NCBI GenBank assembly: GCA_016705125.1
Contig: JADIYW010000028.1
Location: 192,041-256,040, forward strand
Length of the DNA: 64,000 nt
Direction: 5' to 3'
Origin: Bacteroidota bacterium
GTDB taxonomy: Bacteria > Bacteroidota > Bacteroidia > Chitinophagales > JADIYW01
Part shown: piece by piece, positions 3,592 through 53,940 of the stretch
Numbering within the stretch: the first letter of the stretch is position 1
How the letters are laid out: each line of letters starts with the position of its first letter
Made by a program: the position numbers and the translations under genes
The notes under the pieces: generated by a model
The model's input: only the letters and a program-made list of their open reading frames with translations
What the model was told of the DNA's origin: nothing
Database searches by the model: none

Positions 3592-4940
3592 AAACTAAAT
3601 TATGGCAAAAAACTAGCCAAACTGCTTCCGAAAATTTGCAAAAAGTAGAGCAATTTACCATTGGAAATGACAACGAATTGGACATGTTTATGGCTGCTTA
3701 TGATGTATTGGGCACACTCGCACATATCGAAATGTTAGAATCTGTAGGCTTGCTTCAAAAAGAAGAATTATCCGTTTTACAAACCGAGTTAAAAAGACTA
3801 TTTAACCAAATCCAGAATGGACAATTCAAAATAAGTGAAGGTGTTGAAGACATACACTCAGAAGTCGAATTCCAGCTTACAGAAAAATTAGGCGATTTAG
3901 GCAAAAAAGTCCACAGCGGACGTTCTCGAAATGACCAAGTTCTGGTAGATATTAAAATGTACAGCAGGGCCAGATTAGAATCTATTGTAAAATTAACGAA
4001 TCAACTTTTCGAAATCTTACTTGTAAAAAGTGAAGAAAATAAAGCCATTTTATTGCCAGGTTATACTCATTTTCAAATAGCCATGCTATCGTCCGCTGGA
4101 CTTTGGTTGAGTGCTTATGCCGAAAGTCTAACCGACGATATGGAACTTTTGTATAGCGCATTTAAAGTAGTAAACAAAAACCCACTTGGCTCTGGCGCCG
4201 GTTATGGCGGTTCATTACCGATAAACCGAACAAAAACGACCAATTTACTTGGTTTCGAAACACTAAATTACAATTCTGTATATGCCCAAATGACACGTGG
4301 TAAAACCGAAAAAACAGTAGCCTCTGCCCTTTCTTCTTTAGCCGCTACCCTTTCACGTCTTTCGATGGATTGTACGCTTTACCTTTCACAAAATTTCGAT
4401 TTCATCGCATTTCCAAACGAACTCACTACAGGTTCGAGTATAATGCCACACAAAAAAAACCCAGATGTTTTCGAGTTAATAAGGGCAAAATGCAACAAAA
4501 TACAAAGCTACCAAACACAGTTTTTCAATATCACCAACAATCTCCCATCAGGCTACCATCGCGACATGCAGATACTAAAAGACGATTATTTTGCCATGTT
4601 TGACGAAATATCCAGTTGTTTAGAAATGATGATAATGATGATACAAAATATCAGTTTCAAAGAAAACATTTTGAACGATCCACGATACCTACCTCTTTTT
4701 AGTGTAGAAGCAGTAAATCAACTCGTTAGCACAGGAATTCCCTTTCGTATTGCCTATCAGCAAGTAGGATTATCCATAGAAAATGGCACTTTCGAAATGC
4801 CAAAACTAAGTCAACATACACATGAGGGTTCCAAAGACAATCTTTGTTTAGACGAAATCAGATCGGCATACAACCAAACTATACAACAATTCCCCTTCGA
4901 CAAAATCAATCAAGCTTTGGCAAAATTATCCCAAGAGTAA
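3588..4940 (+). CDS. argH: argininosuccinate lyase
   Basis: 450 aa; fumarate-lyase signature GSSIMPHKKNP and HSGRSRNDQV. Confidence 0.9.
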   Translation: MKTKLWQKTSQTASENLQKVEQFTIGNDNELDMFMAAYDVLGTLAHIEMLESVGLLQKEELSVLQTELKRLFNQIQNGQFKISEGVEDIHSEVEFQLTEKLGDLGKKVHSGRSRNDQVLVDIKMYSRARLESIVKLTNQLFEILLVKSEENKAILLPGYTHFQIAMLSSAGLWLSAYAESLTDDMELLYSAFKVVNKNPLGSGAGYGGSLPINRTKTTNLLGFETLNYNSVYAQMTRGKTEKTVASALSSLAATLSRLSMDCTLYLSQNFDFIAFPNELTTGSSIMPHKKNPDVFELIRAKCNKIQSYQTQFFNITNNLPSGYHRDMQILKDDYFAMFDEISSCLEMMIMMIQNISFKENILNDPRYLPLFSVEAVNQLVSTGIPFRIAYQQVGLSIENGTFEMPKLSQHTHEGSKDNLCLDEIRSAYNQTIQQFPFDKINQALAKLSQE

Positions 4941-22778: not shown

Positions 22779-22804
22779 CAGTCCGCTGACCGCTGACCGC
22801 CGAC
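22779..22804. repeat. CAGTCC/GCTGACCG word array
   Basis: cagtccgctgaccgctgaccgccgac, in the intergenic spacer. Confidence 0.5.
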
Positions 22805-25724: not shown

Positions 25725-27332
25725 ATGTCGATAATTAAATCAAAAATCAATACAAATTCGGCTGCATATAAAGATAATTATGCTAAAATGTTGCTTAAAA
25801 TTGAAGAGCTAAACAAGCATTTAAAGCAATCATTGTTTCAAGGGGAAGAAAAACATTTAGCAAAAGCCAAAGCACAAGGCAAATTTTTGGCTCGAGAACG
25901 CATAGAATTATTATTGGATCAAGATTCTCCATTTCTGGAATTAATGCCATTAGCTGGTTTGGGTGTAAAAGGTGGCTTTGGAACGGGTGGAACAATGGTA
26001 TCGGGTATTGGTTATGTATCTGGAAAAATGTGTTTAATTACAGCAAATGTGGGCACCAATAAAGGTGGGGCAATTGATATTGCAACATTAAAGAAAGCAC
26101 TACGCATAAATGAAATTGGGCAAGAGAATAATTTACCAGCTATCAATTTGGTAGAAAGTGCAGGAGCAAATCTGCCCGACCAGGCACAGGTTTTTAATTT
26201 AGGAGGCAATAATTTTAAAGAAATTACAAGACGTTCGAAAAAAGGAATTCCAACTATTTCCATCGTATTTGGTAACTCCACAGCTGGCGGCGCATATATT
26301 CCTGGCATGAGCGATTATACCATTATGATTAAAAACAAAGCTAAAGTGTTTTTGGCTGGCCCGCCATTAGTAAAAATGGCTACAAATGAGATTGTGGACG
26401 ACGAAACACTAGGTGGTGCTGAAATGCATTCCAAAATATCGGGTGTTTCAGATTATTTGGCTCAAGATGAATTGGATGGAATTAGAATAGCTAGGGAGTT
26501 GATAGCAAATTTGACGAGTCCACAGTCGACAGACCACAGTCAACAGTCGACCATTTACAAAGAACCCAATTATCCAATTGATGAATTACTTGGTATTGTT
26601 TCCGTAGACACAAAAGTGCCTTTTGATTGCAGAGAGGTAATTGCTAGGATTGTAGATGGCTCCGAATTTCATGAATTTAAAAAAGAATATGGAACGACCT
26701 TAATCTGTGGTTATGCCAAAATACACGGTTATCCTATTGCAATCATTAGCAATAATGGTGTTTTATTTAATGACTCATCCAATAAAGGAGCACATTTTAT
26801 TCAGTTGTGCAATATGAACAACACGCCAATTATATTTTTACAAAACATAACTGGTTTTATGGTAGGCAAGGAATATGAACAAAATGGAATGATTAAAGAT
26901 GGTGCAAAAATGATAAATGCCGTTTCTAACTCTGAAGTACCTATGTTTACATTAATGATGGGCGCGAGCTATGGAGCGGGAAATTATGCCATGTGTGGGC
27001 GTGCCTATAATCCAAGGTTTTTGTTTTCTTACCCAAATAGTATGATTGCTGTAATGGGAAGTGAACAGTTGGCTGGTGTAATGCAAATGGTAAGTAGAGA
27101 ATCGGCAATAAAAAGTGGACAAACTTTTGATGAAGCCCAAGCTGCACAAATGAAAGAATTTATGAAAGCCGAAATTGAAAAACAAAGCAACGCATTTTTC
27201 GCCTCTGGACAATTGTGGGACGATGGAATAATTGATCCACGTGATACCAGAAATGTTTTCGGTTTGGTATTGGCGCTGACTTATATGAATGAAGTAAAAG
27301 GAACAAACGCATGGGGCGTGTTTAGAATGTAG
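25725..27332 (+). CDS. methylcrotonyl-CoA carboxylase beta subunit (carboxyltransferase)
   Basis: 535 aa; two crotonase-like carboxyltransferase domains (VESAGANLPDQ, GNSTAGGAYIPGMSDY, GPPLVKMATNE, LGGAEMH, NITGFMVGKEYE). Confidence 0.88.
   Translation: MSIIKSKINTNSAAYKDNYAKMLLKIEELNKHLKQSLFQGEEKHLAKAKAQGKFLARERIELLLDQDSPFLELMPLAGLGVKGGFGTGGTMVSGIGYVSGKMCLITANVGTNKGGAIDIATLKKALRINEIGQENNLPAINLVESAGANLPDQAQVFNLGGNNFKEITRRSKKGIPTISIVFGNSTAGGAYIPGMSDYTIMIKNKAKVFLAGPPLVKMATNEIVDDETLGGAEMHSKISGVSDYLAQDELDGIRIARELIANLTSPQSTDHSQQSTIYKEPNYPIDELLGIVSVDTKVPFDCREVIARIVDGSEFHEFKKEYGTTLICGYAKIHGYPIAIISNNGVLFNDSSNKGAHFIQLCNMNNTPIIFLQNITGFMVGKEYEQNGMIKDGAKMINAVSNSEVPMFTLMMGASYGAGNYAMCGRAYNPRFLFSYPNSMIAVMGSEQLAGVMQMVSRESAIKSGQTFDEAQAAQMKEFMKAEIEKQSNAFFASGQLWDDGIIDPRDTRNVFGLVLALTYMNEVKGTNAWGVFRM
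26520..26552 (+). repeat. GTCGAC-word stretch read in frame (PQSTDHSQQST) in the inter-domain linker
   Basis: ccacagtcgacagaccacagtcaacagtcgacc. Confidence 0.6.
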
Positions 27333-27430
27333 GGGAATTTATGATTTATGATTTGGGATTTATGATTTGGGGATAGGAATGAAGAATTTAAGAATTAGGA
27401 TAAGGAATTTAAGATTTGAAAATTTAAAAA
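27333..27430. repeat. ATTTATG/ATTTGGG/AATTTAAG word array with no cargo ORF
   Basis: Starts right after the MCC-beta stop: gggaatttatgatttatgatttgggatttatgatttgggg...aggaatttaagatttgaaaattt. Confidence 0.6.
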
Positions 27431-27731
27431 AAATGGATTTTTACTTTATAGAATAGAAAATATATTATTTACACAATAATAGGGCTACCCTTTTGCAATT
27501 ATTTTACAAAAAGTTAATTGAATCACTGGCTAATTATCATGTGAAGAAATCACTTGGATTAAATAAATTTAGTCCATACAAGAGGCTTGAATCTATTTAC
27601 TTGGATTGAATTTTATAAATTTTATAAATGAATTTAAAAAAGGAGCAAATAGTTGACCAATATTTAAAGAATTCTAAAAACATAATAAATAATAAACATT
27701 AATTAATTTAAAAAACCTAAATCAAAAATAA

Positions 27732-28211
27732 ATGAATAAATTAACAAAAACGCTAAAACAATTAGATTTTCTTCCAGAAGGAATCAGGATGAAAACCATT
27801 TCCTTTATACTAGGAAATACAGTTAAATATGTGGGAACTTCTGGGGTAGATTTTGAAAAAATAACGCCAAATGAATTGATTGTTTCCTTGCCAAATAAAA
27901 GCAAAGTACGCAATCATATCGGTCAAATACATGCTGCAGCCACTACCCTTTTGGCCGAAACTGCTACAGGAATAATTGTAGGTGTAAATATTCCTGACAA
28001 TAAAATTCCACTAATGAAAACATTGAAAGTGGATTTTATAAGAAGAAGTAAAGGCAAACAAACAGCTGTTTCTACTCTTTCTGAAGAACAAATAAATTTA
28101 ATACAAACAACAGATAAAGGCGAAACACTTGTGCCCGTAAAAGTAACAGATGAAACAGGACAAGAGGTGGTAAAAGCAGAAATGCTATGGGCTTGGATAT
28201 TGAAAAAATAA
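27732..28211 (+). CDS. hotdog-fold protein (DUF4442/PaaI-like thioesterase)
   Basis: 159 aa; NHIGQIHAAATTLLAETATG core typical of hotdog thioesterases. Confidence 0.6.
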   Translation: MNKLTKTLKQLDFLPEGIRMKTISFILGNTVKYVGTSGVDFEKITPNELIVSLPNKSKVRNHIGQIHAAATTLLAETATGIIVGVNIPDNKIPLMKTLKVDFIRRSKGKQTAVSTLSEEQINLIQTTDKGETLVPVKVTDETGQEVVKAEMLWAWILKK

Positions 28212-28244
28212 AAAATTTGAAATTAAAAAACAATTATAAATCAC

Positions 28245-30257
28245 ATGTCTCAAATCTCAAATCCAAAGAAAATAACAAAACTTTTAGTAGCCAATCGGGG
28301 TGAAATAGCCATCCGGATTTTCAAAACTTGTCGCGAAATGGGCATTGCAACCGTTGCTGTTTTCTCTGATGCCGATGAAAATAGTTTATTTGTTAAAATG
28401 GCCGATGAAGCAGTTCGTATTGGTGGTAAGCAACCAAATGAATCGTATTTGGTAATGGATAAAATTATAGATGCAGCGAAACAAACAGGTGCAAATGCCA
28501 TTCATCCAGGTTATGGTTTTTTAAGTGAGAAAGTCGAATTTGCACAACGTGTAATCGATGAAAATATAATTTGGGTAGGTCCACATCCAAAAGCCATTGA
28601 AGTAATGGGATCTAAAATTGGTGCAAAAAAAATAATGCAATCGCATAATGTACCCACCATTCCTGGCTATCAAGGCGACGACCAAAGCGAATCAACCATT
28701 AAATCAAAAGCTATTGAAATTGGATTTCCCGTTTTGCTAAAAGCAAGTGCTGGCGGTGGCGGGAAAGGTATGCGTATCGTTCGGCAGGAAAGTGAATTGG
28801 ATAAAGCCATCAACGAAGCAAAATCCGAAGCTTTAAATGGCTTTGGTGATGATACTTTATTAATAGAAAAATATTTTGACACATCAAGACATGTAGAGTT
28901 TCAAATTTTTGGCGATAAACATGGAAACGCACTTCATTTATTTGAAAGAGAATGTAGCATCCAACGCCGTTATCAAAAAGTAGTAGAAGAAAGTCCTTCG
29001 CCATTTATTACCCAAGAAACACGCCAAAAAATGGGCGATGCTGCAGTTGCTGCGTGTAAAGCAATTGCTTATGATAATGCTGGAACGGTAGAATTTATTG
29101 TGGCACCTGATCAATCTTTTTATTTTTTGGAAGTAAATACTCGTTTGCAAGTAGAGCATCCAATTACTGAAGAAGTAACAGGTTTGGATTTAGTTCGATT
29201 GCAAATAGAAGTTGCCGAAGGTCGCCCAATTCCTTTCAACCAAGAAGCAATTTCGCAATGCGGACATGCAATTGAAGTACGAGTATATGCAGAAGATGCA
29301 GCCAATAATTTTATGCCTGTGAGTGGTAAAATAATAGATTGGATTCCTGCAAAAATTGATGGTTTGCGTTATGATACTGGAATAGAAAGTGGTTCAGAGA
29401 TTTCTACTTTTTACGATCCAATGATTGCAAAAATAATTGCAAAAGGGAAAAACAGACAAGAAGCTATTTCAAAACTTACATTGGCCTTACAAGAATTAGT
29501 TTTAACAGGTTTTACCACAAACAAAAACTTCCTTACTGCAATTTTACAAAATGAAGATTTTCAAAAGGGAGATTTTGATACCCATTTTTTAGATAAAATA
29601 TTCAAATATGAAGGCGAAAAATACAATCAAGAATCTATTGATATTTTAACTTGTGCTTTACAACATTATCGCTTTTTAGAACGGCAGAAAAATCAACCCA
29701 TTTCCAACCTGTCAGGTTGGAGAAATAATTTTTATCAACCACAACAAGAAAAATATAGCTTTGGTGGTTTTGAGTTTTTAGTAGAATATAAAAATGAAAA
29801 TGGTGTTTTGAATATTTCATTTGCGGAAAAAACATTTAAAAGTAAAAATTGTCCACAGACCACTGTCGACTGTCGACCGTTGACCGCTGACATCTTTTAC
29901 GTTTTCGAAATAAACAATATCCGTCGTAAATTTTTCTTCTCACAAAATGGCAATCAATATTTTGTTCATTCACCACAACTTGGGCAAATTGTTTTACTAA
30001 GTATAGATAAATTCCCGAATCCAATAGAAGAAACGGTAAAAGGTGGTTATGCTGCACCGATGCCTGGAGAGGTTACAATTGTTTTGGTAAAAGCTGGTGA
30101 TACGGTGAAAAGTGGTGATGCATTATTAAAAATGATTTCGATGAAAATGGAAAGCACCATTGAAGCACAAGCCGATGGCGAGGTGGAAGAAATTTATGTA
30201 AGCGACAAACAATTTGTAGAAGCAGGAACTTTGTTGTTAAAGATGAAGGAGGAATGA
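28245..30257 (+). CDS. methylcrotonyl-CoA carboxylase alpha subunit (biotin carboxylase + biotinyl domain)
   Basis: 670 aa; KLLVANRGEIAIRI, GGGGKGMR, EVNTRLQVEHP, and C-terminal biotinylation SMKME. Confidence 0.9.
   Translation: MSQISNPKKITKLLVANRGEIAIRIFKTCREMGIATVAVFSDADENSLFVKMADEAVRIGGKQPNESYLVMDKIIDAAKQTGANAIHPGYGFLSEKVEFAQRVIDENIIWVGPHPKAIEVMGSKIGAKKIMQSHNVPTIPGYQGDDQSESTIKSKAIEIGFPVLLKASAGGGGKGMRIVRQESELDKAINEAKSEALNGFGDDTLLIEKYFDTSRHVEFQIFGDKHGNALHLFERECSIQRRYQKVVEESPSPFITQETRQKMGDAAVAACKAIAYDNAGTVEFIVAPDQSFYFLEVNTRLQVEHPITEEVTGLDLVRLQIEVAEGRPIPFNQEAISQCGHAIEVRVYAEDAANNFMPVSGKIIDWIPAKIDGLRYDTGIESGSEISTFYDPMIAKIIAKGKNRQEAISKLTLALQELVLTGFTTNKNFLTAILQNEDFQKGDFDTHFLDKIFKYEGEKYNQESIDILTCALQHYRFLERQKNQPISNLSGWRNNFYQPQQEKYSFGGFEFLVEYKNENGVLNISFAEKTFKSKNCPQTTVDCRPLTADIFYVFEINNIRRKFFFSQNGNQYFVHSPQLGQIVLLSIDKFPNPIEETVKGGYAAPMPGEVTIVLVKAGDTVKSGDALLKMISMKMESTIEAQADGEVEEIYVSDKQFVEAGTLLLKMKEE
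29851..29891 (+). repeat. GTCGAC-word stretch read in frame (PQTTVDCRPLTAD) between the BC and biotinyl domains
   Basis: gtccacagaccactgtcgactgtcgaccgttgaccgctgac. Confidence 0.6.
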
Positions 30258-30306
30258 TTTGAGGATTTGAGGATTTGGAAATTTGAAAATTTGAAAATGA
30301 AATATT

Positions 30307-30831
30307 ATGAAAGAAATTATACCCATACAACAAAAAATATTTGAAATCAGGGGGCAAAAAGTTATGCTTGCCCCGATAGCTATCGGGGTTGATTTGGCTG
30401 TTTTGTATGAAGTTGAGACTAGGGTTTTAAATCAGGCAATTAAAAGGAATATAGAAAGTTTTCCAGATGATTTTATGTTTCAACTTTCTAAATCGGAATG
30501 GCAAAACATGTCATCACAATTTGTGATGACATATCCAATCAAAAGACCAAAATCTGCCATTCCTTATGCATTTACTGAGCATGGCGTAACCATGTTAGCA
30601 AGTGTTTTGAAAAGTCCCAAAGCAAGACAAATGAATATACAAATAGTTAGGGCATTTATTGCACTCAGAAATTGGGCACTTAATTATAAAGAATTAGCAG
30701 ATAAAATTGCGCAATTGGAAAATGACAACGATAAAAAATTTGCAGATATTTATGAGGCTTTAAATTATTTAGTAAGCGAAAAAGAAATAGAAACAAATCA
30801 AAAGGAACGAAATAAAATTGGATTTAAATAA
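30307..30831 (+). CDS. ORF6N (KilA-N-like DNA-binding) domain protein, copy 1
   Basis: IFEIRGQKVML...LAVLYEVETRVLNQAIKRN...FPDDFMFQL, and a coiled C-terminus. Confidence 0.7.
   Translation: MKEIIPIQQKIFEIRGQKVMLAPIAIGVDLAVLYEVETRVLNQAIKRNIESFPDDFMFQLSKSEWQNMSSQFVMTYPIKRPKSAIPYAFTEHGVTMLASVLKSPKARQMNIQIVRAFIALRNWALNYKELADKIAQLENDNDKKFADIYEALNYLVSEKEIETNQKERNKIGFK
30371..30388. repeat. 18-bp perfect GC-rich palindrome CCCCGATAGCTATCGGGG inside ORF6N copy 1
   Basis: Read directly. Encodes the extra residues APIAIGV where the paralogue has DF, inside the conserved VMLD-DLA-LY motif. Confidence 0.7.
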
Positions 30832-30868
30832 AAAATATAAATAATATACAAATCAAAAAGTAATAAAA

Positions 30869-31372
30869 ATGATCGAAACAATTTCCATACAACACAAAAT
30901 ATTTGAAATCAGAGGGCAGAAAGTTATGCTCGATTTTGATTTAGCTCAATTGTATGAAATAGAAACAAAGGTACTTAAGCAAAGTATCAGAAGGAATTTA
31001 AATAGATTCCCTTCTGATTTTATGTTTGAACTTACACCCGATGAATTTACCAGCTTGAGGTCACAAATTGTGACCTCAAGCTGGGGCGGAACAAGATATT
31101 TGCCTTTTGCGTTTACCGAACATGGTGTAACGATGTTAGCAAGTATCCTAAATTCTGACAAAGCAATTAATATAAACATTCAAATAGTTAGGGCATTTAT
31201 TACACTAAGAAATTGGGCACTTAATTATAAAGAATTAGCAGATAAAATTGCGCAATTGGAAAATGACAACGATAAAAAATTTGCAGACATTTATGAAGCA
31301 CTTAATTATTTAGTATCTGAAAAAGAAATGGAAACAAATCAAAAAGAACGTAAAAAAATAGGATTTAAATAA
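30869..31372 (+). CDS. ORF6N (KilA-N-like DNA-binding) domain protein, copy 2
   Basis: IFEIRGQKVMLDFDLAQLYEIETKVLKQSIRRN...FPSDFMFEL. The last 192 nt are nearly identical to copy 1. Confidence 0.75.
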   Translation: MIETISIQHKIFEIRGQKVMLDFDLAQLYEIETKVLKQSIRRNLNRFPSDFMFELTPDEFTSLRSQIVTSSWGGTRYLPFAFTEHGVTMLASILNSDKAININIQIVRAFITLRNWALNYKELADKIAQLENDNDKKFADIYEALNYLVSEKEMETNQKERKKIGFK

Positions 31373-31418
31373 CTCGAATTCCTAAATCATAAATCTAAAA
31401 TCATAAATCATAAATAAT

Positions 31419-32243
31419 ATGCTATACACACAAGAACAAACAGCCAATTTCGCAGAACAAAGTTTTGCTTATTTAATTGTAGAAGAAAAAGAAAATGTAT
31501 TAAGCATTACGCTCAATCGGCCTGATAAACGCAATGCCTTTCACATGCCTTTGGCAAATGAATTAGCGTATGCTTTAGCGTATGCGCATTATAACAATTC
31601 AATTTGGTGCGTAGTTCTCAAAGCAAATGGTCCAACTTTTTGTGCTGGTGCCGATTTAAAAGCATTTGCAGGTGCCGATACTACCGAAAAACCTTCAACC
31701 ATTCCTATGCCGAAAGACATGGTAAAACTCGGCGATGAATTCAATGGTTTACACAAACCTTGCATTGCACAAGTACATGCAGATGTTTACGCGGGTGGCT
31801 TCCTTATGATCGGCGGTGCCACACATGTAGTGGCAGTTGAGTCTGCAAAATTTGGTTTACCTGAAGTAAAACGCGGCATCTTTCCATTCCAAGTAATGGC
31901 AACATTAGAACCATTAATGTCGGCAAGGCAATTACTAGATTTATGTTTGAGGGCCAAAACATTAACCGCTCAAGAAGCAAAAGAAGTTGGATTAGTATCA
32001 GTTGTAGTACATCCTGACAGGTTGGAAGAAACGGTTCAAAATTTAGTTTCTGATATAAAAGAACAATCGCCAACTGCCATACGTTTGGGCCTAAAAGCAT
32101 TTCAAGAAATGAAAACAAAAAATGCCGACGACAAACACAAATACTTACATGCTATGTTGATGCAATGTTTACAGAGTAAAGATGCGGCAGAAGGTTTATT
32201 AGCATTCAAAGAAAAACGAAAAGCAAACTGGACAGGCAATTAA
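31419..32243 (+). CDS. enoyl-CoA hydratase family (methylglutaconyl-CoA hydratase-like)
   Basis: 274 aa; crotonase motifs NRPDKRNAF, FCAGADLK, GLPEVKRGIFP. Confidence 0.8.
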   Translation: MLYTQEQTANFAEQSFAYLIVEEKENVLSITLNRPDKRNAFHMPLANELAYALAYAHYNNSIWCVVLKANGPTFCAGADLKAFAGADTTEKPSTIPMPKDMVKLGDEFNGLHKPCIAQVHADVYAGGFLMIGGATHVVAVESAKFGLPEVKRGIFPFQVMATLEPLMSARQLLDLCLRAKTLTAQEAKEVGLVSVVVHPDRLEETVQNLVSDIKEQSPTAIRLGLKAFQEMKTKNADDKHKYLHAMLMQCLQSKDAAEGLLAFKEKRKANWTGN

Positions 32244-32248
32244 AAACT

Positions 32249-32329
32249 AACCGCAAAGGTCTCAAAGATATTACGCAAAGTTCTCTAAGAAAAACTATTC
32301 AATTCAAAAATTGCGCTCTTTGAAGTGTT
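32249..32329. repeat. cargo-less pair of inverted CGCAAAG-type word arrays
   Basis: Left: aaccgcaaaggtctcaaagatattacgcaaagttctctaag (32249-32289). Right: ttgcgctctttgaagtgtt (32311-32329). The left end matches 17/19 with the left flank of the GxxExxY-2 cassette. Confidence 0.45.
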
Positions 32330-32346
32330 AAAAAATAAAAAAGAAT

Positions 32347-33741
32347 ATGAGCAAAACAATAAGAATAGCAGGAGCACAAGGATTTTATGGTGATTCACCT
32401 TTGGGTGCAATGCAAATTGCCATGCAAGGCGCAGCCGATTATTTGATGCACGATGCATTAGCAGAACTAACTTTATCTATCTTACAAAAAGATAAGATAA
32501 AAGACCCAACGATGGGTTATGCCCGAGATATTGAGGTACATGCACGCACTTTATACCCAATGGCATTTGCAAAAGGCATTAAAATTGTAACCAATAGTGG
32601 CGGATTAAACCCTGAAAGTGCCGCCGAAAAGGTAAAAGCCATTTTAGAAAAACAGGGCATTAAAGGCGTCAAAATAGCAACCATTACTGGTGATGATGTG
32701 CTGGCACGTTTACCAGAATTTAAAGAAAATAATATAGAGTTAAATAACTTAGATGACAACTCCTCTTATTACGATTCCAAGTTTCCACCTACTCATGCCA
32801 ATGTATATATAGGTGCACAAAAAGTAAAAGAAGCATTGGACAATGGTGCCAATTTAATTTTAGCTGGTAGAGTTGCAGATCCTTGTTTGGCTTTGGGTAT
32901 TATGGCACACGAATACAATTGGAAAATAGACGATGCAACTTCACAGGAAGATTGGGACAGAATGGCATTTGCAATTACAATTGGTCATATTTTGGAATGT
33001 GGCGGACAAGCAAGTGGTGGCAATGCCTACTCCGAATGGCCTATGAATTATAGTGTGTCAGATTTGGGTTATCCCATTGCTCATGTGAATGAAGACTGCA
33101 CAGCCATTTTAACAAAAGCAGACAATACCGGAGGTAAAGTATCGAGAAATACAATTAGGGAGCAGCTGGTTTATGAAATTCACGATCCTACAAATTATAT
33201 AACGCCCGATGTAGTTGTTGACTTATCTAATATCATTTTGAAAGATGAGTCAGAAAATAGAGTATCCATTTCAGGTATAAAAGGCAAACCAAGACCAGAA
33301 AAATTAAAATTGTGTATCGGACAACATGAAGGATTTGTAACAGAGCAATTTTTCTTCTTCTCCTACCCTTTTGCTTATGATAAATTACAAATGTTCATAA
33401 AAGCCACCAAAGAAACATGGGCAAAATTACCCGTTCAAATTCTCGAATCTCGATTCAACATAATAGGAGTTAATGGTTTACATGAAGATGCGGTAGAAAT
33501 ACCAGATGTTGCAGAATTAAATCAGAGAAGTGAACTAGGATTACGAATTGCTATCAAACATAAAGACGACAGAACAGGAAAAACAGCCATTGCTGGTATT
33601 GTTTGTTTGGGTTTAAATGGCCCTCCAGGTGTAATTTCAGTGCCAGGTTGGGGAAATATGAATAGGGCAATGTTGAGTTTGTTTCCTTGTTTGATACCAA
33701 GAGAATTGATTGAACCTGAATTAAAATATATTGAAGTATAA
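32347..33741 (+). CDS. AtuA-like acyclic terpene utilisation protein (DUF1446), N-terminal body
   Basis: 464 aa; IRIAGAQGFYGDSP...DYLMHDALAELTL N-terminus typical of DUF1446. Confidence 0.7.
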   Translation: MSKTIRIAGAQGFYGDSPLGAMQIAMQGAADYLMHDALAELTLSILQKDKIKDPTMGYARDIEVHARTLYPMAFAKGIKIVTNSGGLNPESAAEKVKAILEKQGIKGVKIATITGDDVLARLPEFKENNIELNNLDDNSSYYDSKFPPTHANVYIGAQKVKEALDNGANLILAGRVADPCLALGIMAHEYNWKIDDATSQEDWDRMAFAITIGHILECGGQASGGNAYSEWPMNYSVSDLGYPIAHVNEDCTAILTKADNTGGKVSRNTIREQLVYEIHDPTNYITPDVVVDLSNIILKDESENRVSISGIKGKPRPEKLKLCIGQHEGFVTEQFFFFSYPFAYDKLQMFIKATKETWAKLPVQILESRFNIIGVNGLHEDAVEIPDVAELNQRSELGLRIAIKHKDDRTGKTAIAGIVCLGLNGPPGVISVPGWGNMNRAMLSLFPCLIPRELIEPELKYIEV

Positions 33742-33744
33742 ATT

Positions 33745-34184
33745 GTCCATAGTCGACGGTCGACAGTCGACCGTGGACTGTTAAACTAAATAATTATGGC
33801 ATTTAAATTTGAGGAATTAAGAATTTGGCAAAAAAGTGTTCAACTTACTACCATTATAGATGAAGTTGCTGACGGATTTCCCAAAAAAGAAATTTATAGC
33901 TTATCAAACCAAATTCGAAGAGCTGCTGATTCTGTATCGTTAAATATTGCAGAAGGTTCAACTGGTCAAACAAATCCTGAATTTAGAAGATTTTTTGGGT
34001 ATGGCTTTAAGATCTGGCATTGAAGTAATCGGTTGTATTTATTTAGCCAAAGAAAGAAAAATAATTAAAGAAGAAGATTTCAAAAGGGTATATGAAGGAT
34101 ATGAAGCATTAATTGTTTCAATTCAATCCCTTAGAAAAACATTATAAACTTTTCGCGGTGGACTGTAGACCGTGGACTGTGGAC
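33745..34184 (+). mobile_element. 440-bp cassette: four-helix-bundle gene bracketed by 29-bp imperfect terminal inverted repeats of GTCGAC words
   Basis: 33745-33773 gtccatagtcgacggtcgacagtcgaccg matches the reverse complement of 34156-34184 (gtccacagtccacggtctacagtccaccg) at 25/29 positions. Confidence 0.55.
33796..34147 (+). pseudogene. four-helix-bundle protein (23S rRNA intervening-sequence protein family), frameshifted
   Basis: FEELRIWQKS...LSNQIRRAADSVSLNIAEG...EFRRF, then LGMALRSGIEV...L in the +1 frame. The break is at T6, 33991-33996. Confidence 0.7.
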
Positions 34185-34200
34185 TTTAAAAAAAAACAAT

Positions 34201-34674
34201 ATGGAAAAAAAAATAGAATTTATGTTACGAGCCATTGAGCTATCAAAAAATGGGCTTGAAAGCGGAAAAGGTGGACCTTTCGGATGTGTAATTGTAAAAG
34301 ATGGAAAAATAATTGGTGAAGGCAACAATCAGGTTACATCCACCAATGATCCCACTGCTCATGCCGAAATGGTTGCAATAAGAAATGCATGCAAAAACAT
34401 AAACAGCTTTCAACTCGAAGGCTGCGAAGTATACACTTCATGCGAACCATGTCCTATGTGTTTAGGAGCTATTTATTGGGCACGTCCCGATAAAATTTAT
34501 TTTGCAAATAATCGATCAGATGCTGCTGAAATAGGCTTCGACGATGCTTTTATTTATGATGAAATAGAAGAAAAAATAGAAAATAGGCAGATACAAATGG
34601 AGCCTTTGGGTAGAATGGAGGCTTTGGAAATTTTTAAACAATGGAAATTAAAAACAGATAAAATTGAATACTAA
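34201..34674 (+). CDS. CDA-fold nucleoside/guanine deaminase
   Basis: GGPFGCVIVKDGKIIGEGNNQVTSTNDPTAHAEMVAIR and PCPMCLGA zinc motifs. Resembles B. subtilis GuaD. Confidence 0.75.
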   Translation: MEKKIEFMLRAIELSKNGLESGKGGPFGCVIVKDGKIIGEGNNQVTSTNDPTAHAEMVAIRNACKNINSFQLEGCEVYTSCEPCPMCLGAIYWARPDKIYFANNRSDAAEIGFDDAFIYDEIEEKIENRQIQMEPLGRMEALEIFKQWKLKTDKIEY

Positions 34675-34685
34675 AATTTAAAATT

Positions 34686-35003
34686 ATGGCAATGATAAAA
34701 TTAATAGATATTGCATCGGCTCGAAGTGGCGATAAAAACAATGTGTGCAATATTGGTGTAATGGCGAAATCCGTAAATGATTATGACACTTTAAAAAAGT
34801 ACCTAACCCCTGAACTTGTAAAAGCACATTTCAAGGGATTGATAAAAGGCAAAGTGGAACGCTTTGAATGGGATAGTTTAGAATCTCTAAATTTTGTATG
34901 CCATGAAGCCTTAGATGGTGGTGCATCTCGAAGTATGCGTATGGATAGTTTGGGTAAAAATTTTAGCTCCCATTTATTGAGACTTGAGATAGAAATAAAT
35001 TAA
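34686..35003 (+). CDS. small protein resembling the C-terminal domain of full-length AtuA
   Basis: 105 aa; IASARSGDKNNVCNIGVMAK resembles the RSGDKG..N.GV motif I recall from AtuA C-termini. Confidence 0.45.
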   Translation: MAMIKLIDIASARSGDKNNVCNIGVMAKSVNDYDTLKKYLTPELVKAHFKGLIKGKVERFEWDSLESLNFVCHEALDGGASRSMRMDSLGKNFSSHLLRLEIEIN

Positions 35004-35537
35004 CCGCAAAGTAAACAAAGTTTTTTCGCAAAGTTCAAAAAGAAAAATGAAAGAAAATGAGTTATCACATATTGTAATTGGATTAGCAATTGATATACAT
35101 AGTTCACTTGGTCCTGGATTATTAGAAAGTGCATATCAAGAATGTTTATTTTACAAATTAAATAAAGAAGGATTCAAAGTTGAAAAAGAAAAAACAATGC
35201 CATTAATTTTTGAGGGCTTAAAATTAGATTGTGGTTATAGAATAGATTTATTAGTTGAAAATAAATTAGTAATCGAAATAAAAAGTGTAACGGAATTAAA
35301 TGATGTTCATTTAGCACAAACCCTTACATACTTAAAATTAGGAGATTATAAACTTGGATTATTAATAAACTTTAATGTAACTCTTTTAAAATTTGGAATA
35401 AAAAGAGTAGTAAATGGATTATAAACTTTTAAATTCTTACTTTAAAAACTTGAAAGACTTATATATTATTTAAAAAACTAATTACATATAAAAACCTTTG
35501 CAAACTTTGCTTAAAAACTTTAAATTCTTTGCGGTAA
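35001..35537 (+). mobile_element. cassette: GxxExxY gene bracketed by ~42-bp imperfect inverted CGCAAAG-word arms
   Basis: Left arm 35001-35042 and the reverse complement of right arm 35495-35537 match at 32/42 positions ungapped. The left arm begins with the host stop codon (aatTAAccgcaaag). Confidence 0.45.
35047..35424 (+). CDS. GxxExxY protein (PD-(D/E)xK nuclease-fold mini-protein), copy 1
   Basis: 125 aa; GPGLLESAYQECL (GxxExxY) and YRIDLLVENKLVIEIKS (D..ExK). Confidence 0.8.
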   Translation: MKENELSHIVIGLAIDIHSSLGPGLLESAYQECLFYKLNKEGFKVEKEKTMPLIFEGLKLDCGYRIDLLVENKLVIEIKSVTELNDVHLAQTLTYLKLGDYKLGLLINFNVTLLKFGIKRVVNGL

Positions 35538-35551
35538 AAAAAAATTAAAAA

Positions 35552-37057
35552 ATGACAAACTTAGAACAATATTACTTAACAGAAGAGCACCATTTATTTC
35601 GTAATTCATTGCGTGATTTTTTGGATAAAGAAGTGGTGCCGTTTGTAGATCAATGGGAAATTGACCATCAGGTGCCAAAAGAAATTTTTAGAAAATTTGG
35701 CGAAATGGGTTATTTTGGATTAACTCAAGAAGAGAAATATGGCGGCTCTAATTTAGATTTTTGGTACGACGTAATCTTTATCGAAGAAGTTTCAAAATCC
35801 AATTCCGGTGGTTTTGGCGCTAGTATTTCGGCTCATCCTTATTTGTCTATGTCACACTTGAAACATGAAGGAAGTGATTTTTTGAAAGATAAATATTTGC
35901 CAAAAGCCATTTCTGGAGATTGGCATGGCGCACTAGCAATCACCGAGCCTCACGCTGGATCAGATGTTGCGAACATAAAAACAACAGCAAAAAAAGACGG
36001 CGACTTTTATATAATAAATGGATCAAAATGTTTTATTACCAATGGTGTATCCGCCGATTATATAATTGTAGCTTGCAAAACTGCTAACGGAATTTCCATG
36101 ATTTTAGTGGAAGGAAATGCTATAGGTTTATCAAAAAACAATTTGAATAAATTAGGATGGAAAGCAAGTGATACAGCTGAGTTAGCATTTGATAATGTCA
36201 AAGTACCAATTACCAATTTATTGGGCGAAGAAGGTAAAGGATTTTACTATATCATGCAACGATTTGAATTAGAAAGACTTACACTAGCACTTGGGGCATT
36301 GGCTTCTTCAGAATGGGCATTGCAATATGCATTACAATACATGAACGAACGAAAGGCTTTTGGAAAAACAATAAATAAATTCCAAGTTTTAAGACATAGA
36401 ATAGCACAAATGGCTGCTGAAATAGAAAATGTAAAAACATTTACTTACCACGTTTGCAAAATGTATAATGACAAAAATTATTGTGTAAAAGAAGCATCAA
36501 TGTCAAAATTATTGGCCACCGAATTGTCAGATAAAGTGGCCTACCAATGCTTGCAAATGTTTGGTGGATACGGCTACATGGAAGAATACAAGATTGCACG
36601 CTTTTTCAGAGATTCGCGATTAGGAACTATTGGTGGTGGCAGTTCTGAAATTATGTGTGAGATTATTGCAAAGATGGTTATTGATGATGTGAGTTATGGT
36701 CGACAGACGACGGTCGACAGTCCAAAGCAAAAGGAATTAAACATTGAAGACATAATTAGTAGCTTACCAAATCGATTTAAAAAAGAAAAAGCAAATGGTA
36801 TTGAAATGACCATTCTATTTGAGTTTGAAAATGATTTATACTATCAAATCGAAATAAAAAACCAAAATATTGTTTTGTCCACGGTCGACAGTCGACAGTC
36901 GACAGTGGACTTAACCATTACAACCACAACCGAAACATACATCGCAGTAGAAACGGGCAAACTAAATCCCCAAGAAGCATTTATGAGTGGGAAAATAAAA
37001 GTAAGCGATTTGGGTAAAATGATGCAGTTTGGTTCTCTTTTTAAAAAATATAATTAA
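35552..37057 (+). CDS. acyl-CoA dehydrogenase fused to a C-terminal SCP2 domain (candidate isovaleryl-CoA dehydrogenase of the cluster)
   Basis: 501 aa; ACAD motifs (ALAITEPHAGSD, FGGYGYMEEY, GTIGGGSSEI). The C-terminal ~110 aa resembles the stand-alone SCP2 ORF at 19543-19878. Confidence 0.85.
   Translation: MTNLEQYYLTEEHHLFRNSLRDFLDKEVVPFVDQWEIDHQVPKEIFRKFGEMGYFGLTQEEKYGGSNLDFWYDVIFIEEVSKSNSGGFGASISAHPYLSMSHLKHEGSDFLKDKYLPKAISGDWHGALAITEPHAGSDVANIKTTAKKDGDFYIINGSKCFITNGVSADYIIVACKTANGISMILVEGNAIGLSKNNLNKLGWKASDTAELAFDNVKVPITNLLGEEGKGFYYIMQRFELERLTLALGALASSEWALQYALQYMNERKAFGKTINKFQVLRHRIAQMAAEIENVKTFTYHVCKMYNDKNYCVKEASMSKLLATELSDKVAYQCLQMFGGYGYMEEYKIARFFRDSRLGTIGGGSSEIMCEIIAKMVIDDVSYGRQTTVDSPKQKELNIEDIISSLPNRFKKEKANGIEMTILFEFENDLYYQIEIKNQNIVLSTVDSRQSTVDLTITTTTETYIAVETGKLNPQEAFMSGKIKVSDLGKMMQFGSLFKKYN
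36698..36723 (+). repeat. GTCGAC-word stretch read in frame (GRQTTVDSP) at the ACAD/SCP2 junction
   Basis: ggtcgacagacgacggtcgacagtcc. Confidence 0.6.
36877..36910 (+). repeat. GTCGAC-word stretch read in frame (STVDSRQSTVD) inside the SCP2 domain
   Basis: gtccacggtcgacagtcgacagtcgacagtggac; its ends are self-complementary (gtccac/gtggac). Confidence 0.6.
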
Positions 37058-37074
37058 CCACAAAGTTCTCAAAG

Positions 37075-37523
37075 TTCCGAAACTTCGGAATTACACAAAG
37101 CACACAAAGATGAAAGAAAATGATTTAGCATATAAAGTAATAGGTTTAGCAATTGAAGTACACAATGTATTAGGACCTGGATTATTAGAAAGTGCATATC
37201 AGGAATGCTTATTTTATAAAATAGAAAAAGAAGGATTACAAGTAGTAAAAGAAAAAGCAATGCCATTGATTTATGAAGAAGTAAAATTGGATTGTGGTTA
37301 TAGAATAGATTTATTAGTAGAAAATAAATTAGTTATAGAAATAAAAAGTGTAGATGCTTTAAATGAAATACATCTTGCACAAACTTTAACTTATCTTAAA
37401 TTAGGAAAATATAAACTTGGATTATTAATAAATTTCAACACCATACTTTTAAAAAGTGGCATAAAACGAATTATAAACGGAAATCCCACTTAGTGAACTT
37501 TGTGTAATTCCGAAGTTTCGGAA
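37075..37523 (+). mobile_element. 449-bp cassette: GxxExxY gene bracketed by perfect 26-bp terminal inverted repeats
   Basis: 37075-37100 ttccgaaacttcggaattacacaaag is the exact reverse complement of 37498-37523 ctttgtgtaattccgaagtttcggaa. Each repeat also contains a ttccgaa/ttcggaa hairpin. Confidence 0.6.
37110..37493 (+). CDS. GxxExxY protein (PD-(D/E)xK nuclease-fold mini-protein), copy 2
   Basis: MKENDLAYKVIGLAIEVHNVLGPGLLESAYQECL...YRIDLLVENKLVIEIKS. I prefer the ATG at 37110 over the track start at 37029, which runs through the upstream gene end and the inverted repeat. Confidence 0.8.
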   Translation: MKENDLAYKVIGLAIEVHNVLGPGLLESAYQECLFYKIEKEGLQVVKEKAMPLIYEEVKLDCGYRIDLLVENKLVIEIKSVDALNEIHLAQTLTYLKLGKYKLGLLINFNTILLKSGIKRIINGNPT

Positions 37524-38673
37524 TTACCCAGTTTGTGTTAAAAAAACAAACAAAATAAATTTAATTTTTTAAAAAAATACACCCCCAAAATGAGTGCAAC
37601 ACAATCTTATCTTAGAAAAGAACACGAATCTTTCAGACAAACGATTCGACAATTTTTAGAAAAAGAAGCCATTCCAAATATTGACCAATGGGAATTGGAT
37701 GGCAAAATACCACGTGTGAAGAAATATCAAAAGTTTTCTCTGGTGGATTTACCATTACTGCCGCCGTGCAAGCATTTATGAGCACTCCATACATTATGAA
37801 ACACGGTAGTGAATATTTGAAAGAAAACTATCTAAAGCCTGCCATAACAGGAGAAAAAATTGGCTGTATCGGAATTACCGAACCAGGTGCTGGCAGTGAT
37901 GCAGCAAATATTCAAACTCGTGCTATTAAAGAAGGCGATTATTATATCGTAAATGGCTCAAAAACATTTATTACAAATGGTATTTATGGACAATTTGTAA
38001 TATTGGTTTGTAAAACAAACCCCGAAGCCGGCGCTGCAGGTGTAAGCCTATTGGTATTGGATTTGGATGCAGAAGGGGTGTCAAAAAACAAACTTAAAAA
38101 ATTAGGATGGCACGCATCCGACACAGCGGAATTGCATTTTGACAATGTTAAAGTACCCGTCAAAAATTTATTGGGTGAAGAAGGAAAAGGATTTTATTAC
38201 CTCATGGGAGGCCTACAATTAGAACGTTTATCTGCTGGAATAATGGGCTATGCATCCTGTGAGGCCATGTTGGAATACTCCTTAAAATACATGAATGAGC
38301 GAAGTGCTTTTGGAAGAACAATCAATAAATTTCAAGTATTGCGACACAGAGTAGCACAATTAGCAGCAGAAATAGAAAGCATTAAAATATTTACACTACA
38401 AACTTGCAAAATGCATGAAGAGGGTAAATATGTTGTAAAAGAATGCTCGATGGTGAAATTATTAGCCACCGAATTAGCAGACAAATGTATGTATCAATGT
38501 CTACAGTTTTTTGGAGGTTATGGCTATATGGAAGAATACAAAGTGGCACGTGCTTTCAGGGATTCTCGAATAGGAACAATTGGAGGTGGTTCGTCAGAAA
38601 TTATGCGCGAAATAATCGCTAAAATGGTCATAGATGATATTGGTTATGAAAGAGCCGAATCTAATGTAGATGG

Positions 38674-38713
38674 CCAACCGTCGACGGTCGACAGTCAACC
38701 GTTGACTGTGGAC
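38674..38713 (+). repeat. GTCGAC-word stretch read in frame (QPSTVDSQPLTVD) at the ACAD/SCP2 junction of copy 2
   Basis: ccaaccgtcgacggtcgacagtcaaccgttgactgtggac. Confidence 0.6.
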
Positions 38714-38839
38714 AAAATATTTGCCACTTTACCCGCACGTTTTAAAACCGAAAAAGCAGTTGGAAAGAACTTAAATTTAGAATTCAGGTTTGACTCCTCT
38801 ACTTATTATGTACTTATAAAAGATGGGAATTTAGAAATT

Positions 38840-38875
38840 CAGTCGACCGACGACCGTCGACCGTCGACCGTGGAT
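38840..38875 (+). repeat. GTCGAC-word stretch read in frame (QSTDDRRPSTVD) inside the SCP2 domain of copy 2
   Basis: cagtcgaccgacgaccgtcgaccgtcgaccgtggat. Confidence 0.6.
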
Positions 38876-41246: not shown

Positions 41247-41415
41247 ATGGGAAGTTGGCAGTCCACTTATAAGTTATTGGTTATTGAGTGATTGGTAATT
41301 AGTGATTGGTAATTAGTTATTAGATGTCGAAAGTGGAGAAGTTGACAGTTCACTGCAATTAGGTTTTTAATTCAACATTTCTTGATTCTATTCAACATTT
41401 AAAATTAAACATTCA
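41247..41415. repeat. word-mosaic array (CAGTCCAC words, then TTATTGG/TGATTGG words, then ATTCAACATT words)
   Basis: Fills the whole spacer between convergent genes. gaagttg(g/a)cagt(c/t)cact occurs twice. Confidence 0.6.
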
Positions 41416-53569: not shown

Positions 53570-53940
53570 TTTTAACTAATTGAGGAGGTCAGCAGTCGAA
53601 AGTCAGCAGTCCGCTGAAAAGTTATTTGTTATTAAGTTATTGGTTATTAGAAGAGTTTAATTTGAGGATGTTTACTGTTGACGGTTCACTGAAAGGAAGT
53701 CCACGGTCCGCGGTCGACAGTCCACTGTAAGGTTATTGGTTATTTGGTTACTTGTATTCATTAAACATTTAAAATTTAACAATTTTGTCCTTCATTAGCT
53801 AATTCGCTAATTATTTCATTATTTAATTCGCCCTTTCTTGATTCTTGTTTCTAAAAATCTTGGGTCCATTAAACATTTAACATTAAGAATTCAACATTTA
53901 AATTTCATTACTTAATTATTTCATTCATTCCCTTTCTTTT
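53570..53940. repeat. long word-mosaic array, including the inverted copy (B) of the 19971-20175 composite repeat
   Basis: taattcgctaattatttcatt (53800-53820) is the exact reverse complement of the 21-bp core at 19996/20081. 53833-53877 matches the reverse complement of 20031-20068 (34/38 plus a 7-nt indel). CAGTC and TTATTGG modules lie at 53588-53755. Confidence 0.65.

Follow-up and report, generated by a model that had tools for sequence, protein, structure and literature searches.

Heptanucleotide GTCGACN arrays translated in surface loops of conserved catabolic enzymes in a Bacteroidota genome

Introduction

How does a short, GC-rich DNA repeat come to be read as protein inside conserved enzymes of an AT-rich genome? 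The question is raised by a 64-kb stretch of contig JADIYW010000028.1 from a Bacteroidota bacterium (the window; 64,000 nucleotides, to which all unprefixed coordinates refer), where tandem arrays of the 7-nt unit GTCGACN lie in frame within MCC-beta, MCC-alpha and two ACAD-SCP2 fusion genes. The GC content of the window is 33%, and its nearest genomes are uncultured Chitinophagales/Saprospirales-like metagenome-assembled genomes with 74–91% amino-acid identity in MCC-alpha. A first-pass annotation, made from the letters alone, took the arrays for a mobile or expandable DNA element tolerated as extra peptide. The present analysis covers the window and the orthologous loci fetched from its relatives (designated by L numbers). 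The coding arrays belong to a population of period-7 repeats spread across this Chitinophagales-like group; the mechanism behind them is unproven.

Results and discussion

Translated arrays in a catabolic gene cluster

An array was scored where at least three consecutive units followed each other with a period of 7 and each unit matched GTCGAC at four or more of six positions. Twelve such arrays are present in the window, whereas 200 dinucleotide-preserving shuffles yield 0.25 on average and never more than 2. The word GTCGAC itself occurs 19 times (expected 2.2, maximum 7 in shuffles). The GTCGACN units are arranged head to tail, 3–7 to an array (Tandem Repeats Finder and our own scan), and include the variants GTCCAC, GTGGAC, GTCAAC, GTTGAC and GACCAC; identity at a lag of 7 nt is 0.56–0.74. 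Six of the 12 arrays are coding, and all six are read in frame where they had originally been noticed (Table 1). The remaining six comprise two cassette arms (33745–34184), an array at 22785–22804 and three arrays within 53588–53725.

The genes concerned form part of a leucine/terpene-type catabolic cluster (25.7–39.0 kb). It encodes the carboxyltransferase MCC-beta (PF01039), a DUF4442 protein, MCC-alpha (biotin carboxylase, BT and biotinyl domains), an enoyl-CoA hydratase-like ORF (named from sequence alone), AtuA, a protein with the AtuA ferredoxin-like domain (AtuA-C) and two ACAD-SCP2 fusions (copies 1 and 2). AlphaFold2 (AF2) models and an alignment to the solved structure of Pseudomonas MCC-beta (3U9R), together with the homology of the copy 2 positions, place all six sites in linkers or loops, as had been supposed, at the protein surface and outside the catalytic core. 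The MCC-beta array lies in the linker joining the N- and C-carboxyltransferase domains, and the linker of 3U9R at this position is only 2 residues shorter. In MCC-alpha the array occupies a loop between strands 144–150 and 166–171 of the AF2 model (mean pLDDT 84, locally 60–75); this loop is much shorter in distant homologues. Site a of ACAD copy 1 falls within a disordered linker (379–397, AF2 pLDDT ~30) and site b forms the tip of an SCP2 beta-hairpin in the AF2 model. Sites a and b of copy 2 are homologous to these, the loop at 38842 matching that at 36877. The encoded peptide, with its STVD-x-R/Q-x periodicity, is best read as a passenger.

The core repeat had also been credited with lacking stop codons in all six frames. 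This holds for (GTCGACN)n with every N. However, 50% of all heptamers are equally open (28.5% when weighted by genome base composition), so stop-freeness is a weak filter and unremarkable by itself. Among the repeat types seen in the window GTCGACN alone is open in six frames, the AT-rich types having stops on at least one strand. Every period-7 array found within a window ORF is of the GTCGAC type, the AT-rich ones being intergenic without exception. The openness of GTCGACN, unlike the AT-rich types seen, would account for its being the only type inside genes of this genome.

ACAD copy 2 is disrupted in the assembly. Its N-terminal part, read from ATG 37591 onwards in a different frame, gives ...DQWELDGKIPR (window 37591–37760); some 33 codons of its orthologues (EFWKKFGEMGYFGL...NVVM in L002) are missing, and the frame shifts near 37712 into the 37688 ORF. 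Either a pseudogene or an assembly error is indicated.

Occupants of the same loops in related genomes

Each protein was aligned with those of 30–40 related genomes and the DNA beneath the variable segment was read. Sister relations were judged from neighbour-joining trees of the flanking protein. Outgroups (L016, L019, L020, L025 and L027) have non-periodic linkers with a lag-7 identity of 0.11–0.29 and no sequence in common with the arrays. Within the clade these positions are nearly always filled with repeat DNA, but the repeats differ; besides GTCGACN, the 7-mer types found in the loops are ATCGACC, AAATCTG/AAATCTC and GTCAGCG. At the MCC-beta linker, GTCGACN is found in the window, L005 and L074, ATCGAC in L001 and L023, GTCAGC in L024, AAATCTG in L003, L008, L009 and L015, and AAATCTC in L006 and L018.

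In MCC-alpha, seven genomes, including L008, L009, L028, L016, L019 and L020, have a short SKFISENNKWF-like loop, which is the ancestral form. GTCGACN arrays are present in six (window, L005, L012, L017, L029 and L074), ATCGACC in L018 and GTTCACC in L070, while the inserts of L006 and L007 are larger. Also found here are three small, unrelated hairpin-like sequences (TGTCATCCTGAACTTGTTTCAGGAT, AACTTTTCCAAAGTTTTAAACTTTGGAAAAGTT and GAGCACCGTCATTCCGAGCGCAGCGAGGAATCTC), each common to non-sister genomes, the groups being L002/L011, L001/L023/L081 and L010/L013/L014/L015/L004. Among the fetched loci the non-tandem occupants (TCATCCTGAACTTGTTTCAGGAT type and others) are confined to this one site, so that they are not demonstrable as dispersed repeats. 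Sister taxa are frequently unlike at occupied sites (L012 and L013, L029 and L011, L005 and L018, L082 and L002/L078, L001 and L015).

A similar picture emerges from 62 ACAD-SCP2 homologues, in which both sites nearly always carry varying peptide types with a 7-aa period; such a period fits period-7 DNA, the DNA having been checked for the fetched loci. In two of these proteins (P0129 and P0135, ~75% identity) the SCP2-loop array extends to ~3.5 peptide periods (TVNRQPSTTNAQPSTVNRQPSTVN), adding ~11 residues. This is the only clear in-frame expansion, so that an expandable element is barely in evidence, and at this greater divergence alone.

The description of the arrays as extra peptide applies to some sites and not to others. 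Relative to array-free orthologues the net gain is +6 to +9 aa in MCC-alpha, +4 to +7 aa at ACAD2a and +3 aa at ACAD2b. At MCC-beta, ACAD1a and ACAD1b it is only +1 to +2 aa, a near-equal-length replacement of a linker already there in the outgroups. On these alignments MCC-alpha appears to be the only clear net insertion, with ACAD2a the next clearest. Because the net change is so small at three or four sites, several arrays are best read as having overwritten a pre-existing linker rather than having been added to it. When filled and short orthologous MCC-alpha sites were compared, neither a target-site duplication nor a sharp common boundary was found.

Could the peptides instead be ancestral, or adaptively selected, linkers rich in S, T, V, D, R, Q and P whose DNA is repetitive by chance? 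Linkers of similar length are present in all homologues at MCC-beta and at the SCP2 loop, and the encoded residues are hydrophilic and suited to loops. However, the outgroup linkers are unrelated and aperiodic, several unrelated peptides occupy one site in sister species, and the same words make up non-coding arms and spacers. Moreover, it is the seventh, amino-acid-changing base that varies while synonymous core positions are fixed. This reading is already contradicted by the data and we regard it as very improbable. With relatives holding other 7-mers, unrelated hairpins or nothing at the same position, the alignments indicate that the arrays are DNA-level repeats and not ancestral protein sequence, as first suggested.

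Uniformity and stability of the arrays

The ACAD1b array could be compared across six species. Six third-codon positions in its interior GTCGAC cores are invariant; in the flanks, the third base is kept in all six species at 60 of the 295 columns with identical amino acids. Variation is limited to the end units and the seventh base. In coding arrays as a whole the seventh base is C in 29 units, G in 17, A in 15 and T in 12, intergenic units being too few for comparison; an avoidance of T is suggestive only.

Uniformity extends across loci within a genome. The first base of xTCGAC is A throughout L001 (3 loci) and L018 (2 loci), which are non-sisters, and G throughout the window (5 loci), L005 (3), L074 (2), L029 (2) and L004 (2). 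The exact probability of finding no mixed genome by chance is ~8e-4.

Selection on the protein acts after this DNA-level origin. The AAATCTG unit would bring an in-frame TGA every third unit, and at that unit coding arrays of this type always have AAATCAC or AAATCAA. Over short distances the arrays are inherited vertically, being common to the sister pairs L004/L006 and L005/L029, and MCC-beta relatives at 97–98% identity differ by point changes only. The arrays thus have a non-protein origin, are uniform at the DNA level, are inherited vertically in the short term and replaced in the long term, and are filtered by protein selection.

Invariant synonymous positions might also point to a functional nucleic-acid motif under selection, whether the binding site of a protein that recognises GTCGAC-like words or an RNA or DNA hairpin modulating transcription, translation or mRNA stability; in ORFs the arrays would then be tolerated on account of this role. 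The presence of all six coding arrays in one catabolic gene cluster agrees with this, as do the AT-rich arrays lying directly upstream of start codons in many relatives, which recall the TAACTGA arrays (PMC4679880). At MCC-alpha, for example, AAATCTG/AAATCAT arrays extend in many relatives (L007, L004, L005, L015 and L031) to only a few bases from the start codon, and in the window (MSQISNPK) and L007 (MSPISNLN) the array continues into the first codons. However, occupancy is patchy among close relatives and the alternative occupants are unrelated, a pattern that a conserved regulatory site would not be expected to show. The potential to form hairpins is also inconsistent. Folding of 10 arrays gave z-scores from -5.1 to +0.8, with strong hairpins in three (z -5.1, -4.9 and -3.4), the best being ACAD1 site b (-12.6 kcal/mol, z -5.1), while four folded no better than shuffled sequence. 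With z-scores of up to +0.8, hairpin folding was dropped as a property of all arrays. Rfam and tRNA scans of the window gave no matches, and there is no rRNA in it. A role as a functional motif is therefore improbable, if less so than an ancestral linker.

Irregularities within arrays were set aside or treated with caution. Two MCC-beta proteins, P0010 and P0014, are cut short and have their ends in the array; they were considered as slippage alleles and rejected as probable assembly errors. In their contigs, L091 (3800–3835) and L092 (3800–3830), which come from closely related strains, the MCC-beta array has irregular units (GTCTCAC, 8-nt spacing) and frameshifts; L092 has many split genes, and in L091 only MCC-beta is split. 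These are probably assembly or read errors. An MCC-alpha fragment (P0151, 94% identity) has LSTLTFFILSKSI for ~13 residues after the array before normal sequence resumes, and looks like a compensated frameshift starting in the array, or a sequencing error.

Four-helix-bundle cassettes and spacer turnover

The inverted repeats at 33745–34184 were said to be built of the same words as the coding arrays, and this is borne out. Positions 33745–33774 and 34155–34184 are complementary at 25 of 30 positions, unit by unit and including the variable seventh base; the maximum in 5000 random trials was 19/30. The arms enclose a gene for a four-helix-bundle '23S rRNA intervening sequence (IVS) protein' (PF05635/TIGR02436), which is frameshifted in the window by a 1-nt insertion (TTTGGGTATGGC vs TTTGGAATGGC in L087). 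In L087 (766–1116), from the same species and 99.2% identical, the gene encodes an intact 116-aa TIGR02436 protein (E = 4e-26).

This cassette is not in rRNA: AtuA lies on one side and a gene of the cytidine/adenosine-deaminase fold (34201–34674) on the other. The cassette and deaminase gene stand between AtuA and AtuA-C (window 33743–34667) in this species only. In nine relatives AtuA leads to AtuA-C through a 40–150 bp repeat-filled spacer, and L080 and L089 have a cassette without the deaminase gene. That of L080 is orthologous and intact, with GTCCAC/GTGGAC arms complementary at 22/30 positions, and in that of L089 both the four-helix-bundle gene and the arms are different. In six relatives this spacer contains no gene but a hairpin of CACAGAG words, and L084 has another hairpin.

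Turnover can also be seen within the species. Between the hydratase and AtuA genes, L088 (744–1262), with flanks 98–99% identical to the window, carries one more four-helix-bundle cassette, which is intact and whose inverted arms are GC-rich, of period 7 and made of GTCCGC/GCGGAC words. In the window the same spacer (32244–32346) holds a hairpin built of CGCAAAG-type words and free of any gene. Turnover within a species thus affects entire spacers. L088 and the window also differ in the final residues of the protein encoded upstream.

Period-7 arrays flank 15 of 30 four-helix-bundle cassettes among the fetched loci and none of 12 cassettes with a GxxExxY gene; for random 100-nt windows the rate is 1.2%. 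The cassettes located between MCC-beta and MCC-alpha have arms of AAATCTG type, and in several species arrays of this type are also translated, in the MCC-beta linker. Such arms adjoin the MCC-alpha start codon or extend into it.

Table 1. Period-7 arrays, word-built cassettes and associated genes in the window.
Feature	Position	Strand	Remarks
MCC-beta array	26518–26551	+	5 units (GTCCACA GTCGACA GACCACA GTCAACA GTCGAC); peptide PQSTDHSQQST
MCC-alpha array	29851–29891	+	6 units; peptide PQTTVDCRPLTAD; BT-domain beta-barrel loop
ACAD copy 1, site a	36699–36725	+	3–4 units; peptide GRQTTVDSP; ACAD-SCP2 linker
ACAD copy 1, site b	36877–36910	+	5 units (GTCCACG GTCGACA x3 GTGGAC); peptide STVDSRQSTVD
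ACAD copy 2, site a	38666–38713	+	5–7 units; peptide (VDG)QPSTVDSQPLTVD; ACAD-SCP2 linker
ACAD copy 2, site b	38842–38875	+	5 units, GTCGACC type; peptide QSTDDRRPSTVD; SCP2 loop
Cassette, left inverted arm	33745–33778		GTCCATA GTCGACG GTCGACA GTCGACC GTGGAC
Cassette, right inverted arm	34158–34184		GTGGACT GTAGACC GTGGACT GTGGAC
Four-helix-bundle '23S rRNA IVS protein' gene	33796–34147	+	PF05635/TIGR02436; PF05635 E = 4.5e-20
Intergenic GC-rich array	22785–22804		(GCTGACC)3, the GTCAGC variant on the opposite strand; period-7 scan
Intergenic block	53588–53725		GC-rich arrays 53588–53614, 53670–53689 and 53699–53725, alternating with AT-rich GTTATTN arrays
AT-rich array	27337–27374		GATTTAT/GATTTGG; directly 3' of the MCC-beta stop
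AT-rich array	28248–28267	+	(TCTCAAA)3; leader into first codons of MCC-alpha (MSQISNPK)
AT-rich array	31374–31419		AAATCAT; inverted relative to the array at 30254–30298
GxxExxY cassette	35000–35538	+	PF13366/TIGR04256; inverted CGCAAAG/CTTTGCG-word arms, not period-7
Second GxxExxY cassette	37059–37523	+	35-nt arms, 91% complementary; nested TTCCGAAACTTCGGAA mini-hairpin

Origin of the arrays

We favour an origin of the GTCGACN arrays by unit duplication or slippage, combined with homogenisation or conversion within and between arrays and followed by filtering at the protein level, and give this reading a probability of roughly 0.55. It is preferred because it agrees best with the tandem arrangement of the units, with overwriting that leaves length almost unchanged and with a 7-mer variant specific to each genome. 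Period-7 repeats fill the majority of weakly constrained DNA stretches: spacers, the inverted arms of the small, selfish four-helix-bundle cassettes, leaders and first codons, and surface loops and linkers. Slipped or hairpin-assisted replication would duplicate units and so create arrays, and homogenisation or conversion would tend to overwrite unconstrained sequence rather than add an insert of fixed length. Selection on the protein then keeps only those versions that are open-reading, mostly hydrophilic and located in loops. No change in copy number was seen within the species, and the gain or loss of a single unit alters the reading frame; slippage must therefore be slow or strongly counter-selected.

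A number of observations weigh against this origin. Twelve same-species ACAD1 sequences, at least 98.8% identical, have arrays of equal length, so the expandable nature claimed for the repeat finds no support at this range, and no event was caught in the act. Pairwise third-position identity does not differ between the whole array and its flanks (0.64 vs 0.59). Convergent selection, such as that to avoid a restriction system cutting GTCGAC, could account for the uniform 7-mer variant instead of conversion; L001 and L018, whose arrays are of ATCGAC type, contain no GTCGAC site in 9–22 kb. The non-tandem hairpin sequences found in the same loops are beyond the reach of slippage. Of the 58 ORFs only 4 contain coding arrays, and these belong to a single 13-kb gene cluster. 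Finally, the modal array length of five units (13/24 arrays) and the asymmetry of the end units, the first being GTCCAC or GTCAAC and the last GTGGAC or GTTGAC, resemble a discrete element more than a free-running microsatellite.

These last two features lead to an alternative, that of a discrete mini-hairpin behind each coding array. Such an element would be mobile but non-autonomous and ~35 nt long (GTCCAC-N-(GTCGAC-N)3-GTGGAC), a gene-less solo stem derived from the arms of four-helix-bundle cassettes that inserts repeatedly and survives only in permissive loops, much as REP, MITE or RPE elements (see below) do. Its end units would be complementary, three arrays do form strong hairpins, and the cassette arms consist of the same words and are truly complementary. 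The L088 cassette with its GC-rich period-7 arms, absent from the same spacer of the window, speaks for mobility, and so does the AtuA/AtuA-C spacer with its different cassettes or gene-less hairpins by species. Unrelated small hairpins have moreover taken the MCC-alpha loop independently several times. A 16-nt perfect mini-hairpin, TTCCGAAACTTCGGAA, present in both arms of the second GxxExxY cassette (37075–37090 and 37508–37523), is also nested within the translated AAATCTG array of the MCC-beta linker in L002 (9091–9106) and L078 (5392–5407), where it gives SEITSETSELKSEI.

However, comparison of filled and short sites shows neither the duplication nor the boundary that insertion would leave, and at three or four sites the net length change is far below the size of the element. 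Four of the ten arrays folded show no hairpin tendency beyond that of shuffles, and part of the end-unit asymmetry falls at synonymous codon positions. Among the 13 distinct window ORFs scanned for Pfam/NCBIfam families, neither a transposase nor a RAYT (REP-associated tyrosine transposase) was identified. The seventh-base patterns differ between window loci, and the arrays are therefore not recent copies of one another. The mobile element of the first-pass annotation is thus unproven, and a mini-hairpin origin, while a real possibility, is doubtful.

A broader reading may also be considered. Stem-enclosed cassettes (four-helix-bundle and GxxExxY 'IVS protein' genes) and gene-less stems could together form one mobile or self-homogenising system, to which unconstrained spacers and protein loops serve as reusable 'slots' that it overwrites repeatedly; repeat DNA would in this way rewrite loops of core metabolic enzymes on the time scale of speciation. 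The 7-mer variant would be fixed for the whole genome, either through a trans-acting factor or through the avoidance of restriction sites. We advance this as a speculation only, and one that is unlikely as a whole.

Comparison with known repeat systems

Heptamer repeats include the short tandemly repeated repetitive (STRR) sequences of heterocystous cyanobacteria. Mrazek et al. are said to have described, in 2007, 'long simple sequence repeats' (LSSR). Heptanucleotide tandem repeats are thus recognised in bacteria, with their origin unexplained (MacGregor 2015, PMC4679880; Rehm 2015, PMC4692102). The TAACTGA arrays of Beggiatoaceae, Cyanobacteria and Bacteroidetes are start-proximal and have been proposed to be translational regulators (MacGregor 2015, PMC4679880). 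The few intragenic cases fall mostly at protein ends or in hypothetical ORFs (PMC4679880). The GGGAATC arrays of Xanthomonas and Nostoc have a preferred unit number of four (Rehm 2015, PMC4692102), compared with five here.

The present arrays share with these systems the head-to-tail 7-nt unit, the large number of short arrays, genome-specific units and a preferred unit number. They are likewise mostly intergenic, often just upstream of start codons and sometimes in inverted pairs. In particular, the start-proximal AAATCTG/AAATCAT arrays at MCC-alpha resemble the TAACTGA arrays of Beggiatoaceae. However, the unit here is GC-rich and self-complementary (GTCGAC + N) within a 33% GC genome and is found in frame in internal enzyme loops, orthologous loops are re-occupied by different units, and arrays serve as the arms of four-helix-bundle cassettes. 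Strain-level variation in copy number, which slippage produces in heptamer repeats, was not seen among the 12 ACAD1 sequences.

Ogata et al. reportedly described, in 2000, the Rickettsia palindromic elements (RPE) as selfish DNA lying in frame in protein-coding genes. As with RPE, a dispersed repeat is found here both in spacers and in frame in conserved genes, where it encodes a surface peptide that is absent from orthologues, tolerated and non-functional. RPE are unique-sequence palindromes of 100–150 bp, whereas the arrays are 27–48 bp of tandem 7-nt units, replace sequence without net insertion at several sites and are inconsistent in their hairpin potential. Rickettsia RPE, and likewise MITEs (miniature transposable elements with inverted repeats), are treated as in-frame selfish palindromes in PMC1779305 and PMC10969869. 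Unlike MITEs, the arrays have no target-site duplication beside them and their end units are only loosely complementary.

The REP/REPIN sequences associated with RAYT (Bertels & Rainey 2011, PMC3116915), where REP stands for repetitive extragenic palindromic, are also short, GC-rich imperfect palindromes in many copies, often in inverted pairs, with within-genome evolution of families. REPs are, however, extragenic and have no tandem 7-nt substructure, whereas half of the arrays described here (6/12) are in ORFs, and the scanned window ORFs yielded no RAYT. A closer likeness to the cassettes is offered by the IVS of 23S rRNA with an S23p/four-helix-bundle ORF, as in Coxiella (PMC4990558), in that a PF05635/TIGR02436 ORF lies inside complementary arms and the IVS is regarded as selfish. 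The present cassettes differ in lying between protein-coding genes, in having arms of period-7 words and in sharing these words, free of any gene, with ORFs. GC-rich palindromes of organelles (Volvox mitochondrial DNA, PMC2670323; Nematomorpha, PMC6649704) have likewise spread in AT-rich genomes and are sometimes translated in genes. They are, however, organellar and have no 7-nt tandem unit, and there is no evidence of a common mechanism. Our literature search found no description of 7-nt arrays translated in internal loops of conserved enzymes, of loops that are occupied repeatedly, and by different repeats, in related species, or of period-7 arrays as arms of four-helix-bundle cassettes outside rRNA.

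These loci show that a DNA process which generates repeats, rather than protein evolution, can write part of the sequence of conserved bacterial enzymes, and that the same enzyme loops are rewritten repeatedly among related species. For alignment and annotation, the array segments of MCC and ACAD-SCP2 proteins should be treated as repeat-derived. The arrays mark permissive insertion sites in the MCC and SCP2 domains, and they affect metagenome assembly and the calling of frameshifts. They also provide a link between bacterial heptanucleotide repeats, the four-helix-bundle/GxxExxY 'IVS protein' genes that are very abundant in Bacteroidota and Cyanobacteria, and selfish DNA that lies in frame as in Rickettsia. 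Since many related genomes are available, the system is tractable by comparison.

Other repeats in the window

Five further intergenic arrays of the GTCGAC words had been listed at the outset. Those at 22779, 53588 and 53700 are real, while the sites at 41255 and 63577 hold single GTCCAC/GTGGAC words beside other repeats. Outside the window, stretches of at least four GTCGACN units occur in 2 of 2.9 million viral contigs, a result that is uninformative on mechanism. The IMG/VR contig IMGVR_UViG_2531839532_000012 (L094), which is viral or proviral, carries a perfect (CAGTCGA)9 at 3703–3766 in a locally AT-rich setting.

An array like that at 27337–27374 forms, in relatives, the left arm of a four-helix-bundle cassette at the same position. 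The spacer following MCC-beta in the window (27375–27731) has the GATTTAT array at its start and AAATCAA words at its end. Where relatives have the four-helix-bundle gene in this spacer, the window has ~270 bp without a recognisable ORF, and may retain a decayed cassette.

The GxxExxY cassettes have arms made of CGCAAAG or CACAAAG words. Small genes of a third kind are enclosed by a word-built stem at 30254–31420, where two tandem ORF6N genes (30307–30831 and 30869–31372) lie between inverted AT-rich arrays (GATTTGAG... / ...AAATCAT).

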